From the NCBI RefSeq assembly GCF_029379315.1, contig NZ_JAQYWQ010000014.1, positions 542-64,541 on the forward strand: 64,000 nt of DNA, in the 5' to 3' direction. Made by a program: the position numbers and the translations under genes. The stretch's first letter is position 1. Each line of letters starts with the position of its first letter. This DNA is from Nostoc sp. S13. GTDB taxonomy: Bacteria; Cyanobacteriota; Cyanobacteriia; Cyanobacteriales; Nostocaceae. Of this stretch, positions 44,122 to 51,792 are shown piece after piece. Below the pieces are notes generated by a model that searched no databases, was not told where the DNA came from, and was given only the letters and a program-made list of their open reading frames with translations.

Positions 44122-44257
44122 AACAGAGTAATGCTGAAATACAGAGATACGTAATAATAGGGTAAGGCAGCTGGGATGACAGTCCAGCATCCCTATGCTA
44201 ATGTTTTCTGGACTATCTGCGCTACATTACTATTTTTTGACATTTGATAACAGCGCT

Positions 44258-45364
44258 ATGCAATCAGCAGTTACACCCGAATCTTCCGCAATGGATACGC
44301 CCAAACAAGGAATGCCAGTAACAATTATTACGGGTTTCCTCGGTAGTGGCAAGACGACTTTACTTAATCATATCCTCAACAACCAACAGGGTTTGAAAAC
44401 CGCTGTTCTCGTGAATGAATTTGGCGAAATTGGCATCGACAACGAGCTAATTGTTTCCACTGGTGAGAACATGGTGGAACTAAATAATGGTTGTATCTGC
44501 TGCACCATTAATAATGATTTGGTAGATGCAGTTTACAAAGTTTTAGAACGCCAAGAAAATCTAGATTATCTAGTCGTGGAAACAACTGGATTGGCAGATC
44601 CGCTACCAGTAGCTTTAACATTTCTGGGCACAGAGTTGCGTGATTTAACTCGTCTGGATTCGATTATTACCGTGGTAGATGCGGCGAATTATAGCCTAGA
44701 TTTATTCAACTCTGAGGCCGCATACAGCCAGATTGCCTATGGTGATGTCATTGTGCTGAACAAGACTGATTTGGTTGATGAAGCCACTTTGAAGGAGTTA
44801 GAAAGAAAAATTAACGAAGTTAAGGAAGGAGCAAGAATTATTCGCACCACGCGATCGCAAGTGCCACTTCCTTTAATTCTCAGTGTTGGTCTGTTTGAAT
44901 CTGATAAATATTTTGACACAGTGGTAGATGACCACGACGATCACGACCACGATCATGATGACCATGATCACTCAACATGCGGTCATGACCATCACGATCA
45001 TGACCATGACCATCACGATCATCACCATCATTCTGACCATTTAGAAAATGATGGTTTCACTTCCATATCTTTCCAAAGTGACAAGCCTTTTTCTATTAAG
45101 AAGTTTCAGTATTTCTTAGATAACCAGCTACCCTCAAATATCTTCCGAGCGAAGGGGATTATGTGGTTTGATGAAAGTCCGAAGCGTCATATTTTCCACC
45201 TTTGCGGTAAACGCTTCACCTTGGATGATGATGAATGGCAAGGTCAATTGAAAAACCAATTAGTGCTGATTGGTCAAAATTTGGATCGTGAGGCTTTAAT
45301 TACTCAACTCCAAAACTGCATTTGTCTACCTTCAACCTCTCGCGGTAAAGGGTTTGGGAAATAA
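44258..45364 (+). CDS. CobW/COG0523 family GTPase metallochaperone with His/Asp-rich tract
   Basis: TGFLGSGKTT, NEFGE, GCICC and ETTGLADP; start placed at MQSAV. Confidence 0.92.
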   Translation: MQSAVTPESSAMDTPKQGMPVTIITGFLGSGKTTLLNHILNNQQGLKTAVLVNEFGEIGIDNELIVSTGENMVELNNGCICCTINNDLVDAVYKVLERQENLDYLVVETTGLADPLPVALTFLGTELRDLTRLDSIITVVDAANYSLDLFNSEAAYSQIAYGDVIVLNKTDLVDEATLKELERKINEVKEGARIIRTTRSQVPLPLILSVGLFESDKYFDTVVDDHDDHDHDHDDHDHSTCGHDHHDHDHDHHDHHHHSDHLENDGFTSISFQSDKPFSIKKFQYFLDNQLPSNIFRAKGIMWFDESPKRHIFHLCGKRFTLDDDEWQGQLKNQLVLIGQNLDREALITQLQNCICLPSTSRGKGFGK

Positions 45365-47560: not shown

Positions 47561-49312
47561 ATGGAGCCTATTCAGTGGAATTGGATAATTGCTCACGGCA
47601 TCACTGCATTTTCATACTTTGGCATCCCTACTATAATAGGGGTTTTCTTTGCCAAAACTAAGGCAACTATCCCTTCTAAGTTTTGGCTAGCCTTTTTCTT
47701 ATCAGGTGGATTCATACTATTGTGCGGATTTCATCATCTTCTGGCGGTCTTTGAGCCACATATGGCAGTCTCGCTGCTGCACTTAGGTCTGCTCGACTTA
47801 ATGGCGTTTATTTCCTTGTCTGCCCTGCTCTACCTGATGCCAACCGCTTATCAAATTGTAGAGGCGATCGGCAAATATCAAGAAGATACCTGCGAACTTA
47901 AACGCAGCCAGCAGATGCAAGGGCTATTCCTAGATAATGGCCCGTTTGGGGCCTATATTAAAGATGAGCAATCTAGAATGCTCTACTACAACCAGGAGCT
48001 ACAGTCTATATTTTCGATAGATTCACAACAATGGTTGGGGAAAACGGATAATGAATTCTTCCCAGATCCAGAAGAGGCGCGGCAGGTAATAGAAAACGAT
48101 AAAATCGTTTTGAGGACTCTACGCCCCTTGAAGGTGATTGAACAGGTAAAAAAACCTGGTAATGATCAGACGTCCTACTGGCTATCGTTTAAGTTTCCGT
48201 TTTGCGATTACGTAACGGGCGCTAACCGCATCGGTGGGATCAGTATTGATATTACAGAATCCATAGAAACACAGCGATCGCTCACTGACATAAATCGGCA
48301 GCTAGAAGAAAAAACACTGAAATTAGAGGCAAAAAAACAGGAACTTATATCTCTCTCAGATATGGCGGATATGCTTTATTCCTGCGAGTCTGAAGATGAG
48401 GTGTATCAAGTGGTCGCTTTAACCTGTTCCAAGCTGTTTCCTAATATGAGTGGTTGTATCTGTATAATTGCTAATTCCAAGAATTATGTTCAGATCAATA
48501 GTATTTGGGGACGTGAAAGAAGCAGTAAAGAAATATTTTCACAATCTCAGTGTTGGGCATTGCGGAGAGGGAAATTCAACCTTTTATCGCCTCGCAACTC
48601 AGGACTGATGTGCAGCCACTTAGTACAGCCTGTTAGCGGCGCACATTTATGTGTTCCCTTGTTTGGACAAGGCGAAGTAGTTGGGGTTTTACACATCTAT
48701 GCCCTTGAAGAAATTAGTCCAGAAGAGCAACAAACTACTGAGATTATTGCTAGATCCTTAGCCTTTGCACTGAATAATATATCGATAAAAGAACGTCTAA
48801 CCCATGATAACTTGCGGGATGCAATGACCCAACTATTCAATCAAAACTATCTGCAAACTATAACGGAACAGAGGTTGGCGGAAGCTGAACGGTCGGCACA
48901 ACCTCTAAGTGTTATTTTCCTTGATATCGATAACTTTAAATCTTACAACTCGCGCTATGGGCATTTGACTGCCAACATTGTTCTTCAGGGATTAGCAAAA
49001 CTGCTCTTAAAATCTATTCGCTCCTTTGACATTGCTTGCAGATGGGGTGGTGAAGAATTTGTAATTGTGATGCCTAATATGACGCTGGAAACGCTCAGGA
49101 AGCGAGTAGAACAACTAAGAGTAGATGTTGAACAAATGCAGTTGAAGGACGGCGATCATATCCTCGAAGGCATCACGGCTTCTTTTGGAATAGCTGTATC
49201 AGAACCAGGAATTACAGTTAAGGATTTTCTGAATCGGGCAGATCAAGCGATGCTTGAGGCAAAGCGAAAAGGGAAGAATCGGGTTATGGAGTATATAAAT
49301 ACCTATAATTAA
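47561..49312 (+). CDS. Diguanylate cyclase: ETR1-like membrane sensor, PAS, GAF, GGDEF
   Basis: N-terminal SYFGIP and FILLCGFHHL; C-terminal RSFD I-site plus RWGGEEF and RADQAMLEAK. Confidence 0.88.
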   Translation: MEPIQWNWIIAHGITAFSYFGIPTIIGVFFAKTKATIPSKFWLAFFLSGGFILLCGFHHLLAVFEPHMAVSLLHLGLLDLMAFISLSALLYLMPTAYQIVEAIGKYQEDTCELKRSQQMQGLFLDNGPFGAYIKDEQSRMLYYNQELQSIFSIDSQQWLGKTDNEFFPDPEEARQVIENDKIVLRTLRPLKVIEQVKKPGNDQTSYWLSFKFPFCDYVTGANRIGGISIDITESIETQRSLTDINRQLEEKTLKLEAKKQELISLSDMADMLYSCESEDEVYQVVALTCSKLFPNMSGCICIIANSKNYVQINSIWGRERSSKEIFSQSQCWALRRGKFNLLSPRNSGLMCSHLVQPVSGAHLCVPLFGQGEVVGVLHIYALEEISPEEQQTTEIIARSLAFALNNISIKERLTHDNLRDAMTQLFNQNYLQTITEQRLAEAERSAQPLSVIFLDIDNFKSYNSRYGHLTANIVLQGLAKLLLKSIRSFDIACRWGGEEFVIVMPNMTLETLRKRVEQLRVDVEQMQLKDGDHILEGITASFGIAVSEPGITVKDFLNRADQAMLEAKRKGKNRVMEYINTYN

Positions 49313-49502: not shown

Positions 49503-50639
49503 TTAATCTAGAGGCGCTCTAGTATTTCGCAATAACCCTCCAATATTCGTAAATTCAGGAGTATTATTCAAAGCTTTTAAAGAATTTCTATCAGCTTTAT
49601 CTACAATGGCATTGTAGGCATTAATTGCCTGATTGAGTTTAGTCAGATCGACAGCGTTCTGGTTTGTTACCAGACCGACAGCGTTCTGATTTGTTACCAG
49701 ACCGACAGCGTTCTGATTTGTTACCAGACCGACAGCGTTCTGGTTTGTTACCAGACCGACAGCATTCTGGTTTGTTACCAGACCGTTGAGGCTCAAGATT
49801 AAATCGGTTATGGATAGAGGATCAGCCCCTGTTAACCCCAGGCTTATCGCAGTATTCGCAGCACTAGGATCAACTCCGGCTGCCAACACAAATGCTAGAA
49901 CAATGGCTGCATTCTTAACCTTATCCCGTGGGCCAACTATTTCAAAATTAAATGTTTCCCCATTAGGTTTATTGACTGTAACAACCTTTTTTACAGTTTC
50001 TATTGGTGAACTATTAAGGGTTGGGGCTTGAATAGGAGGTATAACTGTTGTGTTACCACCAATTAGAACATAAATAGAGCCTTTGACAGGTAGTGTAGTA
50101 ATTGCAGTCTTTACATATTTAATGGCAGCCGCTAGAGTGGCAAAACTTTTACTGTTACCACTACCTGTTAACAACGATCCGCCACCAGGAACTAGCGGTT
50201 GAATAATATTCACAATTACAAAAATCCGACCAGGAACTGGCGCTTCAGTTCTATTCACAATAACAGGAGCCGCCGCCCCAACCAAAGCTGCAATTTGTTG
50301 TTGTGTCAAACCGCCAGTTTGTAAGGTGACAACAGCCCTTTGTGCAGATGTATTCAGAATATTTTGAATATTTGGCGGTACAGTAATTTTAAATATTCCA
50401 CCACTATTAGTCACTGTAATGTTGCCAAATTTTGTTGTGCCACCATTTTGAAGAGTGACAGGCACTGAAAAAATAGTACCACTTGCGGCATCAGAGTTAT
50501 TACCACTTGTATGACCACTGATTCCCAGACTGTCCCTCTGCCCGATCGGGAGAGGGCGAGCTTGGCTTGGCAATTGCCAAGTACTCAAAAGCAGAGGACT
50601 TAGACTTAGAGCAAGGATTAGAGACTTGATTTTGATCAT
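49503..50639 (-). CDS. Putative secreted Thr/Val/Gly-rich protein with internal 9-aa repeats
   Basis: Signal-peptide-like MIKIKSLILALSLSPLLL...SQA; (GLVTNQNAV)x5. Confidence 0.7.
   Translation of the reverse strand: MIKIKSLILALSLSPLLLSTWQLPSQARPLPIGQRDSLGISGHTSGNNSDAASGTIFSVPVTLQNGGTTKFGNITVTNSGGIFKITVPPNIQNILNTSAQRAVVTLQTGGLTQQQIAALVGAAAPVIVNRTEAPVPGRIFVIVNIIQPLVPGGGSLLTGSGNSKSFATLAAAIKYVKTAITTLPVKGSIYVLIGGNTTVIPPIQAPTLNSSPIETVKKVVTVNKPNGETFNFEIVGPRDKVKNAAIVLAFVLAAGVDPSAANTAISLGLTGADPLSITDLILSLNGLVTNQNAVGLVTNQNAVGLVTNQNAVGLVTNQNAVGLVTNQNAVDLTKLNQAINAYNAIVDKADRNSLKALNNTPEFTNIGGLLRNTRAPLD
49651..49785. repeat. 5 x 27-bp coding tandem repeat
   Basis: Unit acagcgttctgRtttgttaccagaccg. Confidence 0.9.
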
Positions 50640-50664
50640 AGTGATTCTCTGAAAATAAAGGGAT

Positions 50665-51792
50665 TTACTTGGGCAAGAAATTGAAACCATAGCTGACACT
50701 CAAAAGTACGGCACTACCACCAGCAGTCCGATCCGTCAGGTCTAAACCTTCAAGCTGAATCGTCAGAGGAATAGTTTGGACAGGAACGAAAGAAAGCCCA
50801 GCGTTTAAAGCTACTCCACTCCAAGATGCACCGATACCTACTTGAGGATGAACTTGCAAACCCACGCCTCCAAATACCCCAACGTCGTCATTTCCGTCAC
50901 GGAAGTTGCCGCCTCCCACTCCTACGGTAAGTGCCAATGGCATCTGATTTTGAGGACTGTTAGGTTGCAACAGGGAGACACTTGTAACTTCACCATAGAC
51001 ACTAGAATCAGCCACTCCTTCATTCCCATACTGGGCAAAGGTATTCCAGCCAACAGCAGCCGCAATTTGATTGGTAGTACTAGTAGAGAGAACACGGTGA
51101 GCTTTAAGATCGAAGGTTCCATTATCACCAAAGTTTTTGATACTACCTTCGTTGAAGGCGACTTCTAAACCGATTGACTTTTGGCTATCTCCCAAACCAA
51201 AACCCGCACTGATACTCCCATCCAAACCACCATTGCCATTGCGCTCTTTGCGAGTTGCTCCTGATGCTTGCACGAAAAAGTCTCCCCAGTTAGCTCCGAA
51301 AGCACTGGGAATGCCAAAGCTGAGGCTAGGAATATAGCTTTGTTTACCACCTCCAAACAAAGGCTTAATTTTTAGCCTTTGACGTAATTCACTATCATTT
51401 AATTGAGTTTGGGAGTCAACAGAGGGAGTTTGAGCTTGTAATAGAATTTGATGATCACCTTGCTTTGGTGATATCATCAGCATCTGTGCTGGACTGAGAT
51501 TTGAAGAGTTTACTTTCGGAAAAACAATCGCTTTTGGGGTTTGAGTCTTGCCTGATTCAGTTAAAGATGCAGTCTGTTGTTTTTCAAAAATAATTTTATC
51601 CTCTAAGGATGGAGTCTGTTGTTCTTGAGAAACAATGACAATATTATCTTCAGCAACTGCGGGATTAACTGAAATAGCCATTAATGCTGTGAAGGAAGTT
51701 ACCAGACTTGCCCCTAAAATATAGAAAATATACTTAACAACAGTCAGTTGATAAATCTTCTTGCTGTTGTGCCTCTTTTGTTTTTTATCCAC
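50665..51792 (-). CDS. Putative outer-membrane beta-barrel-like protein
   Basis: Signal-like N-terminus, Gly-rich alternating strands and aromatic C-terminal strand VSYGFNF. Confidence 0.6.
   Translation of the reverse strand: MDKKQKRHNSKKIYQLTVVKYIFYILGASLVTSFTALMAISVNPAVAEDNIVIVSQEQQTPSLEDKIIFEKQQTASLTESGKTQTPKAIVFPKVNSSNLSPAQMLMISPKQGDHQILLQAQTPSVDSQTQLNDSELRQRLKIKPLFGGGKQSYIPSLSFGIPSAFGANWGDFFVQASGATRKERNGNGGLDGSISAGFGLGDSQKSIGLEVAFNEGSIKNFGDNGTFDLKAHRVLSTSTTNQIAAAVGWNTFAQYGNEGVADSSVYGEVTSVSLLQPNSPQNQMPLALTVGVGGGNFRDGNDDVGVFGGVGLQVHPQVGIGASWSGVALNAGLSFVPVQTIPLTIQLEGLDLTDRTAGGSAVLLSVSYGFNFLPK

Follow-up and report, generated by a model that had tools for sequence, protein, structure and literature searches.

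The question raised by this locus is what a membrane-bound cyclase of Nostoc sp. S13 perceives through a domain that resembles the ethylene-binding domain (EBD) of the plant receptor ETR1, and what its catalytic domain makes. No structure of an EBD has been solved and the source of the affinity of its copper site is still debated; EBD-to-GGDEF fusions, of which the present protein is one, are mentioned in surveys with none characterised, and a 2022 census of c-di-GMP sensory inputs included neither ethylene nor copper. The gene lies within the 64,000 nucleotides of contig NZ_JAQYWQ010000014.1 that were analysed (the window), to whose forward (+) strand all coordinates refer. Taken together, the present data suggest that the protein probably senses a metal-dependent signal, and that ethylene may not be its ligand.

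Gene and domain architecture

An intact open reading frame at 47561..49312, preceded by merely 7 in-frame codons before a stop, encodes a membrane sensor GGDEF cyclase of 583 aa, an assignment drawn from the reading frame, a domain scan and 73% identity, across 583 residues aligned free of gaps, to the ortholog All4896 of Anabaena PCC 7120. The domains are, in order, a divergent ETR1_N module of three transmembrane helices (residues 5-100; 47573..47860; Pfam PF25487, hhalign and AlphaFold), a PAS domain (residues 124-234; 47930..48262; Pfam PAS_4, 62 bits; model strands 129-230), a GAF domain (residues 276-404; 48386..48772; Pfam GAF_2/GAF) and a GGDEF domain with a GGEEF motif and an RxxD I-site. 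In the AlphaFold model, helices at 2-32, 39-64 and 68-91 precede the PAS domain, with moderate confidence in the transmembrane region (pLDDT 60-81), and a Lys-rich loop at 31-40 is consistent with an N-out, C-in topology. Helix 3 continues to the PAS domain in this model as a long helix (residues 93-125; 47837..47935), and the inter-domain linkers are helical, the one between PAS and GAF spanning 42 residues (232-273; 48254..48379). Searched with Foldseek, the full model matched sensor diguanylate cyclases exclusively, and the PDB sequence matches of the GGDEF domain are diguanylate cyclases as well. Five residues of the GAF region (Cys275, Cys331, Cys351, His353 and Cys364) are invariant in the ortholog alignment, including a 40%-identical lineage. 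A bilin-binding GAF domain of the cyanobacteriochrome type was rejected, as weak generic GAF models match this region and no bilin-type family does.

A diverged ethylene-binding domain

The ETR1_N match at residues 5-100 has an E-value of 1.8e-9 and 38.1 bits against a Pfam cut-off of 27, and the same module scores 42.4 bits in a genome-wide scan; these values lie far below those of canonical ETR1_N members (118-148 bits) and of the two canonical EBD histidine kinases encoded elsewhere in the same genome (142-148 bits). The match is nevertheless more than chance, because hhalign aligns the ortholog profile with the canonical EBD profile at a probability of 98.8% (E 1e-16, 93 columns), and because those weak matches of the N-terminus among 1.84 billion representatives that were scanned against Pfam are all ETR1_N proteins. 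The single-sequence scan of those representatives returned just 16 matches. The first-pass annotation, made from the sequence, had named a closer fit to some other family of membrane sensors as grounds against its reading, and in Pfam no other such family fits the N-terminus at E <= 1. In a tree of EBDs the domain clusters with other variants lacking Asp25 (98/94 and 92/82 support, on long branches) and apart from the two canonical kinases of its own genome. A PDB search with this N-terminus or with a canonical EBD matched no chain, and word-indexed searches for the wider group with His at position 25, using the N-termini of P0121 and P0124, added one protein each, P0145 and the canonical P0146. 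Judged by these profile and tree comparisons, the first 100 residues do descend from the copper-dependent ethylene-binding domain but have diverged heavily.

Residues of the putative metal site

Residues were compared through the Pfam model and through canonical EBDs of cyanobacteria, whose motifs are those of the ETR1 strings on which the first-pass annotation had relied. The two motifs named there are present (SYFGIP at 18-23, FILLCGFHHL at 51-60), and the copper-ligand pair Cys65/His69 of ETR1 is kept, one turn apart on helix 2, as Cys55 (128 of 129 relatives) and His59 (129 of 129), both invariant in divergent orthologs. The claim that His occupies the position of ETR1 Asp25, which is required for copper binding and for high-affinity binding of ethylene, likewise holds: alignments place His12 on helix 1 (47594..47596) in that column, with Tyr/Ile/Pro at +7/+10/+11 as in canonical domains, and His12 is found in 128/129 relatives and in every divergent ortholog. 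Tyr19, Ile22, Pro23 and Ile52 correspond to Tyr32, Ile35, Pro36 and Ile62 of the ETR1 ethylene pocket, which ETR1 needs to bind ethylene, position 52 being Val in most orthologs.

Further substitutions surround this conserved core. The segment Cys55-Gly-Phe-His58-His59 (47723..47737) has an extra histidine, His58, in the column of ETR1 Thr68 (His in 126/129 relatives). On helix 3, the profile alignment places Leu78 in the column of ETR1 Lys91, a residue that forms a polar bridge to Asp25 and acts in signal transmission, with Asp79 as the next residue and His74 four residues, or one turn, before (47780..47797; register from hhalign and from the gap-free spacing to His59 and Ser85). His74 is new and conserved (125/129), as is Asp79 (128/129 relatives), position 79 being D or N in divergent orthologs and Asn in the PCC 7120 group. 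The membrane helices contain four His and one Cys that vary little or not at all among the relatives (125-129 of 129), and the same set is kept by orthologs from four further genera and by a lineage from a different cyanobacterial order that is 38-40% identical. The N-terminal extension with a conserved Cys (the PHGxC motif of bacterial members) is absent, the protein beginning six residues before helix 1; position 8 is Cys in most orthologs and Trp in this copy. The loss of Lys91, the change of Thr68 to His, the helix 3 His and Asp and, in the cyclase, Asn472 had not featured in the first-pass annotation.

In the published model of ETR1, positions 25, 68, 69 and 91 surround the copper, with distances of 2.8 A for D25-H69, 3.3 A for D25-K91 and 2.7 A for T68-Cu (PMC10266040), and three of these positions (25, 68 and 91) are the ones altered in the Nostoc protein. 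Measured along the three predicted helices from their outer ends, His12, His58/59 and His74 lie approximately level, and Cys55 and Asp79 a turn further in. A histidine cluster is therefore proposed on the basis of sequence depth and the ETR1 model. A natural and strongly conserved variant in which a set rich in histidine takes the place of Asp25 and Lys91 offers a ready means of testing the current model of ETR1.

Distribution, locus and the ortholog All4896

Only Nostoc and four sister genera carry the gene, and a search of 126 Nostoc genomes left 22 without a match. In Nostoc it is inserted between moaB and mraY, which together with psb28 are housekeeping neighbours that also adjoin in genera without the cyclase, on which ground functional linkage to them was rejected. 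Promoter and terminator sites occur no more often than in shuffled sequences, and conservation of the upstream intergenic region is patchy. All4896 has the same domains and is identical at His12, Cys55, His58, His59, His74 and Asn472; it differs in having Asn at position 79 and a GGDEF motif (Asp79 and GGEEF in the Nostoc protein) and in its locus, where the gene is flanked by those for an RPE65 carotenoid oxygenase and a CHASE3-PAS-GGDEF-EAL protein. The gene all4896 is a direct target of the iron/redox regulator FurA, with a 5.1-fold change in a strain that misregulates FurA (PMC12282138), which fits a metal or redox role, although control by FurA in Anabaena need not hold for Nostoc, where the gene is at another locus. 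Published all4896 knockouts have no phenotype under standard laboratory conditions (PMC8682488, PMC13075795), and the link to plant symbiosis and hormogonia that had been suggested for the Nostoc gene is unsupported. Given the silent knockouts and the 22 genomes without a match, the physiological importance of the protein may be small. The papers examined on All4896 make no mention of an ethylene-receptor-like domain. Nonetheless, as all4896 resides in a genetically tractable model strain with existing knockouts, the question of what the protein senses is directly testable.

A model for signal perception

We lean towards reading the membrane domain as a metal-centred sensor, with ethylene sensing possible but unsupported, and the gene product as a dimeric inner-membrane sensor cyclase. 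This model proposes that the Asp25-Lys91 second shell has been replaced by a histidine-rich set consisting of His12, His58 beside His59, His74 and Asp/Asn79, and that the domain most likely holds a metal ion, by default copper, in a higher-coordinate, nitrogen-rich site, as suggested by the shared depth of His12, His58/59 and His74 with Cys55 and Asp79 a turn below. A small membrane-permeant ligand at this site, or the metal or its redox state itself, would shift helix 3, which as one long helix into the PAS domain may pass the signal onward through the 42-residue helix, the GAF domain and a further helix. The signal would end in the geometry of the GGDEF dimer, and the RxxD I-site would supply product feedback. 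Ethylene is one candidate ligand, probably with altered affinity or kinetics.

A working ethylene receptor, in which Cu(I) on Cys55 and His59 would bind ethylene and thereby raise or lower c-di-GMP, appears unlikely, as does the accompanying suggestion that His12 with Asp79 stands in for Asp25 and Lys91 with the polarity reversed, so that a carboxylate-histidine-metal arrangement would persist. Six of the seven ETR1 ethylene-binding residues are present in this copy, the Cys/His pair being invariant, and model chemistry offers precedents for ethylene binding by Cu(I) with three nitrogen ligands. The natural Asp25Asn variant of Arabidopsis ETR1, which belongs to the same domain family, still signals, with an affinity approximately 100-fold lower (PMC10266040, PMC11971883), and EBDs of cyanobacteria and Azospirillum bind ethylene (PMC6682694, PMC11819568). 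However, all seven residues are present in every bacterial EBD shown to bind ethylene (PMC6682694, PMC11819568), and the Nostoc protein lacks both Asp25 and Lys91. Asp25 of ETR1 has been changed to A, N, E and Q, His not being among the substitutions, and all four left no detectable copper binding in vitro, with no detectable ethylene binding in yeast for A, N and Q (PMC10266040). Position 25, which is coupled to position 91, does vary in the family, being Asp in 93.55% and Asn in 3.67% of 1,221 sequences; His falls within the remaining ~2.8% and is undiscussed in that survey (PMC10266040). The Nostoc protein departs from ETR1 further in having His for Thr68, and His and Asp on helix 3 in place of Lys.

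Among the nearest known counterparts, SynEtr1 (Slr1212/UirS/PixA) from Synechocystis PCC 6803 and the Geitlerinema proteins GeiEtr1/2 likewise have an N-terminal three-helix EBD with the Cys/His pair, followed by PAS/GAF-type domains, but they retain all seven ETR1 residues, bind ethylene and signal through a histidine kinase, and the GAF domain of SynEtr1 binds bilin, whereas the Nostoc protein has Asp25 and Lys91 replaced and a GGDEF output (PMC6682694). AzoEtr1 of Azospirillum brasilense, also a bacterial receptor with an EBD, influences biofilm formation and the colonisation of roots; unlike the Nostoc protein it has all seven canonical residues, is proven to bind ethylene and has a histidine kinase as its output (PMC11819568). 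The module scores 38 bits where the two canonical EBD kinases of its genome reach 142-148, and the change of Asp79 to Asn in the PCC 7120 group means that the proposed carboxylate is not fixed. Of the first-pass proposal that ethylene or copper controls c-di-GMP, homology to an ethylene-binding domain is upheld; the step to control is unsupported, and the replaced Asp25 and Lys91 and the two canonical kinases weaken it. Because the genome has these two fully canonical EBD histidine kinases, the diverged copy is the least likely ethylene receptor among its three EBD proteins.

Somewhat less probable again is metal or redox sensing without a gaseous ligand, whereby loading of the His/Cys site according to copper, zinc or iron status in the membrane or periplasm, or its oxidation, would switch the cyclase. 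The histidine-rich site (four invariant His along with one Cys and Asp/Asn) agrees with such a mechanism, as does direct FurA control of the Anabaena ortholog, and the four invariant Cys and one His of the GAF domain could add redox or metal sensing. However, conservation persists at Tyr19, Ile22, Pro23 and Ile/Val52, whose ETR1 counterparts take part in binding ligand and not metal. In addition, no metal-homeostasis gene is linked, the neighbours being psb28, moaB and mraY, and a nearby CobW-type GTPase is also found at this locus in genera without the cyclase. That the helices are a mere EBD-derived anchor or dimerisation module, with sensing left to PAS and GAF, is improbable: these two are conserved sensor folds themselves and the knockouts show no phenotype, but an anchor would not be expected to bury five ionisable or polar metal-ligand residues that are invariant across 38-40% identical lineages, and purifying selection acts on all domains, with a dN/dS of 0.27 for the EBD, close to the 0.23 of the PAS domain.

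Cyclase output

The catalytic GGDEF domain spans residues 419-574 (48815..49282; Pfam 141 bits, TIGR00254 142 bits). The output predicted in the first-pass annotation, PAS-GAF-GGEEF with an RxxD I-site, is borne out by the Pfam domains and by the I-site Arg487-Ser-Phe-Asp490, which lies five residues before the intact and conserved active-site loop GGEEF at 496-500 (49019..49060; both kept in all orthologs). Alignment to DosC and motif position equate Asp455, Lys460, Asn463, Glu498 and Lys568 with Asp327, Lys332, Asn335, Asp370 and Lys442 of PleD, metal and phosphate residues listed previously (PMC6629876). The guanine-recognising Asp of PleD (Asp344), by contrast, is replaced by Asn472 (48974..48976, from the alignment to DosC), in the column of Ser348 of the Hypr GGDEF protein GacA. 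This substitution raises doubt, on alignment grounds, as to how well the enzyme uses GTP, and poses a second biochemical question independent of the first. A literature search for Asn in place of PleD Asp344 returned nothing relevant, and no enzymology was found in the papers examined on All4896.

Hypr GGDEF enzymes have Ser or Thr at the base-recognition position and strictly GGDEF, never GGEEF (PMC6456294). GacA of Geobacter shares with the Nostoc protein a base-recognition residue other than Asp, but a cGAMP-forming Hypr enzyme was rejected, as Asn472 is neither Ser nor Thr and the motif is GGEEF; the combination of Asn with GGEEF lies outside the coverage of the Hypr work (PMC6456294). A broader scenario would join both ends of the protein, such that a repurposed ethylene-binding fold, its intramembrane metal centre made of His12, His58, His59, His74 and Cys55, would have switched ligand, for instance to O2, NO, CO or the state of copper, iron or redox (in keeping with FurA control of the Anabaena ortholog), and a GGDEF domain with Asn is relaxed or altered in nucleotide specificity, giving an output that is maybe not pure c-di-GMP; as a joint claim this is doubtful. 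Of 119 Nostoc orthologs, 115 have Asn at position 472, as does every Nostocaceae ortholog checked, and the outgroup lineage has Asp. The genome has 11 intact GG(D/E)EF reading frames, of which this is the sole one with Asn there, the other 10 having Asp.

A variant ethylene-binding domain in a GGDEF protein

The cyclase gene is an intact open reading frame of 583 aa at window positions 47561-49312 (+ strand); just seven codons are open 5' of its start. Pfam assigns residues 5-100 to ETR1_N (PF25487; E 1.8e-9, 38.1 bits against a cut-off of 27), residues 124-234 to PAS_4, residues 276-404 (window 48386-48772) to GAF/GAF_2 and residues 419-574 to GGDEF (141 bits). A GGEEF motif occupies residues 496-500, with an RxxD motif (RSFD, residues 487-490) five residues ahead of it; both, like the N-terminal motifs quoted in the first-pass annotation, are found in the reading frame. 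NCBIfam returned generic diguanylate-cyclase models only, none above an equivalog threshold, and PDB sequence matches covered the GGDEF domain and, weakly, the PAS domain, leaving the rest uncovered.

By sequence comparison, the N-terminus is homologous to the ethylene-binding domain (EBD). Pfam found no family besides ETR1_N at E <= 1 in this region, and a search with residues 1-115 against 1.84 billion representatives matched 16 proteins, with ETR1_N in each of those domain-scanned. A profile of 110 orthologous N-termini aligned with a canonical-EBD profile over 93 columns (98.8% probability, E 1e-16), and AlphaFold, from an alignment of 37 sequences, models three helices here (2-32, 39-64 and 68-91; mean pLDDT 77.5). 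The domain's dN/dS of 0.27 (0.23 for PAS, 0.31 for GAF and 0.15 for GGDEF) indicates purifying selection. Within its family, however, it is by sequence an outlier, scoring 42 bits against 146-148 bits for the other two of the three ETR1_N matches in the Nostoc sp. S13 genome. In a tree of 42 EBDs it clustered with database proteins P0121 and P0133 (support 98/94), next with P0122 and P0124 (92/82), and separately from every canonical cyanobacterial EBD, those of both Nostoc sp. S13 kinases included, a placement that is tentative because the branches are long. The first-pass annotation had proposed ethylene or copper control of the cyclase. This is partly supported: the homology holds in Pfam and profile alignment, but function does not follow from homology.

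Binding-site residues and possible ligands

Seven residues required for ethylene binding were mapped by ETR1 numbering (PMC10266040; PMC6682694). Tyr32, Ile35, Pro36, Cys65 and His69 are kept as Tyr19, Ile22, Pro23, Cys55 and His59, Ile62 corresponds to Ile52 (Val in most orthologs), and Asp25 is replaced by His12; beyond the seven, Thr68 becomes His58 and Lys91 becomes Leu78. On helix 3, Asp79 directly follows the Lys91 column and His74 lies four residues ahead of it. Asp79 as the Lys91 equivalent was rejected, as profile alignment and ungapped counts (from His59, and back from conserved Ser85) place it one residue later. Conservation among 129 relatives is near complete (His12 in 128, Cys55 in 128, His58 in 126, His59 in 129, His74 in 125, Asp79 in 128), and the four His and the Cys are retained in orthologs of four other genera and in the 38-40% identical lineage P0121/P0145. 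On the P0121 contig, the ornithine carbamoyltransferase shares 78% identity with its counterpart in a cyanobacterium from another order.

Across 1,221 EBDs, Azhar et al. (2023, PMC10266040) report Asp25 in 93.55%; the 3.67% that have Asn instead are mostly from cyanobacteria. His at this position is not discussed there. In the same study, ETR1 Asp25 changed to Ala, Asn, Glu or Gln lost copper binding in vitro, the Ala, Asn and Gln forms showed no detectable ethylene binding in yeast, and Asp25 and Lys91 were found to co-evolve. Its AlphaFold-Multimer model of ETR1 has Asp25 hydrogen-bonded to His69 (2.8 A) and Lys91 (3.3 A) and Thr68 at 2.7 A from copper, distances by which the four positions changed in the cyclase are those lining the copper site. 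In a small sample of other non-Asp25 EBDs, a polar helix-3 residue likewise substitutes for Lys: His25 pairs with His91 in P0122, with His87 and Asn91 in P0124 and with Glu87 in P0131, and Asn25 with Asp91 in P0130 and P0133.

By residue count inward from the outer end of each predicted helix, His12 on helix 1, His58/His59 on helix 2 and His74 on helix 3 share a depth of five to six residues, and Cys55 and Asp79 sit one turn deeper. For ETR1, a two-coordinate Cys/His Cu(I) site is the favoured view; the modelled arrangement here suggests a metal site formed by all three helices and richer in nitrogen ligands. It is possible that ethylene is nonetheless the ligand, as its pocket residues are retained; however, the equivalents of both Asp25 and Lys91, tied to high affinity and signal transmission, are absent, and the genome already encodes two canonical receptors. 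These are ordinary histidine kinases, EBD-HisKA-HATPase (434 aa) and EBD-HisKA-HATPase-REC, whose EBDs (G000:C169:8749-9036 and G000:C238:30061-30348; loci L001 and L002, outside the window) retain Lys91 and each of the seven binding residues, Asp25 included, and they are better candidates than the cyclase for ethylene perception in Nostoc sp. S13.

N-terminal Cys residues of plant receptors form an intermolecular disulfide. Residue 8 of the cyclase (window 47582-47584) is Trp in the Nostoc sp. S13 copy and Cys in 113 of 129 relatives; if Cys8 forms such a disulfide in the relatives, the Nostoc sp. S13 protein would lack it.

Proposed signal path and probable catalytic output

If all three helices do form a metal site, the AlphaFold model offers a route for its signal. 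Helix 3 is prolonged unbroken, with a kink at Pro94, by a helix (93-125) that enters PAS; PAS and GAF are joined by a helix of 42 residues, and the final GAF helix heads toward GGDEF. IsPadC, DosP and Dcsbis, all helix-coupled sensor cyclases, are the closest matches among solved folds. Because helices connect the four domains in the model, a change at the metal site could shift these helices and so reach the catalytic dimer, with RxxD possibly mediating product inhibition.

In PleD, Asp344 reads the Watson-Crick face of guanine, and its equivalent in the Hypr GGDEF protein GacA is Ser348. The cyclase has Asn472 in this column (window 48974-48976), as do 115 of 119 Nostoc orthologs and every Nostocaceae ortholog checked; the P0121 lineage has Asp, as do the other ten with an intact motif among the 12 GGDEF ORFs of Nostoc sp. 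S13. Catalytic residues listed in PMC6629876 are mostly present (Asp455, Lys460, Asn463, Glu498, Lys568). Hypr enzymes pair Ser/Thr with GGDEF only (PMC6456294), whereas the combination of Asn with GGEEF falls outside that paper's coverage, and the literature searched yielded nothing on Asn at this position. Asn472 may relax or change nucleotide specificity and, because it replaces the guanine-reading Asp, diguanylate cyclase activity is likely but unproven for this protein.

In the GAF domain, Cys275, Cys331, Cys351, Cys364 and His353 are invariant, the 40%-identical outgroup included, which hints that this domain may itself be a redox or metal sensor; it did not match bilin-binding GAF families.

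Relation to all4896

The gene is an ortholog of Anabaena PCC 7120 all4896, whose group encodes a 583-aa protein 73% identical to the cyclase without gaps, differing in Asn at position 79 and GGDEF in place of GGEEF. In that group the cyclase has moved beside an RPE65-type carotenoid oxygenase, and at the locus of this group that was examined (L156:3404-6593) it lies between the oxygenase gene and one encoding CHASE3-PAS-GGDEF-EAL. Single deletion of all4896 left heterocyst frequency unchanged (PMC8682488), it is the one of the 16 c-di-GMP genes described here as having "little noticeable phenotype" (PMC13075795) and one of eight "DGC-only" genes deleted in multi-deletion strains, and EMSA identifies it as directly targeted by FurA, with a 5.1-fold change in a FurA misregulation strain (PMC12282138). 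The published accounts of all4896 that were consulted, these three among them, do not mention an ethylene-receptor-like domain. The domain family, the gene itself and EBD fusions to non-kinase outputs (PMC7700396) are already known; the literature searched contains no description of the His-rich variant site or of its combination with an Asn-type GGDEF.

Distribution and locus history

Among 389 Nostocaceae genomes (68 genera), the gene was found in 104 of 126 genomes of the window's genus and in ten genomes of four other genera, and not in the remaining 63 genera; across 401 genomes of the phylum, a sharp gap separated orthologs (>=171 bits) from canonical EBDs (<=37 bits). Nearly all of eighty named loci are labelled Nostoc, many being lichen cyanobionts; three are metagenome-assembled genomes labelled Chroococcales (two) or Acetobacteraceae (one), probably mis-binned. 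The order psb28-moaB-cyclase holds in 57 of 57 Nostoc loci, with convergent mraY downstream in 55. Since moaB directly adjoins mraY, with no cyclase between, in at least 17 of 29 other Nostocaceae genera, the gene seems to have been inserted here in the Nostoc lineage, and it appears functionally unconnected to the adjacent genes.

Between the cyclase and mraY (window 49503-51792, - strand) lie two genes without Pfam matches, one encoding a 398-aa protein that looks secreted and repeats the nine-residue unit GLVTNQNAV five times in tandem, the other a 375-aa protein; as only 4 of 57 Nostoc loci carry them, they look like a recent insertion. Some 2 kb upstream of the cyclase (window 44195-45364, + strand) lies a gene for a GTPase of the CobW/G3E family that contains a long tract rich in His and Asp, a metallochaperone-like feature; this gene is probably unrelated to the cyclase because it also occurs at this locus in genera lacking the latter.
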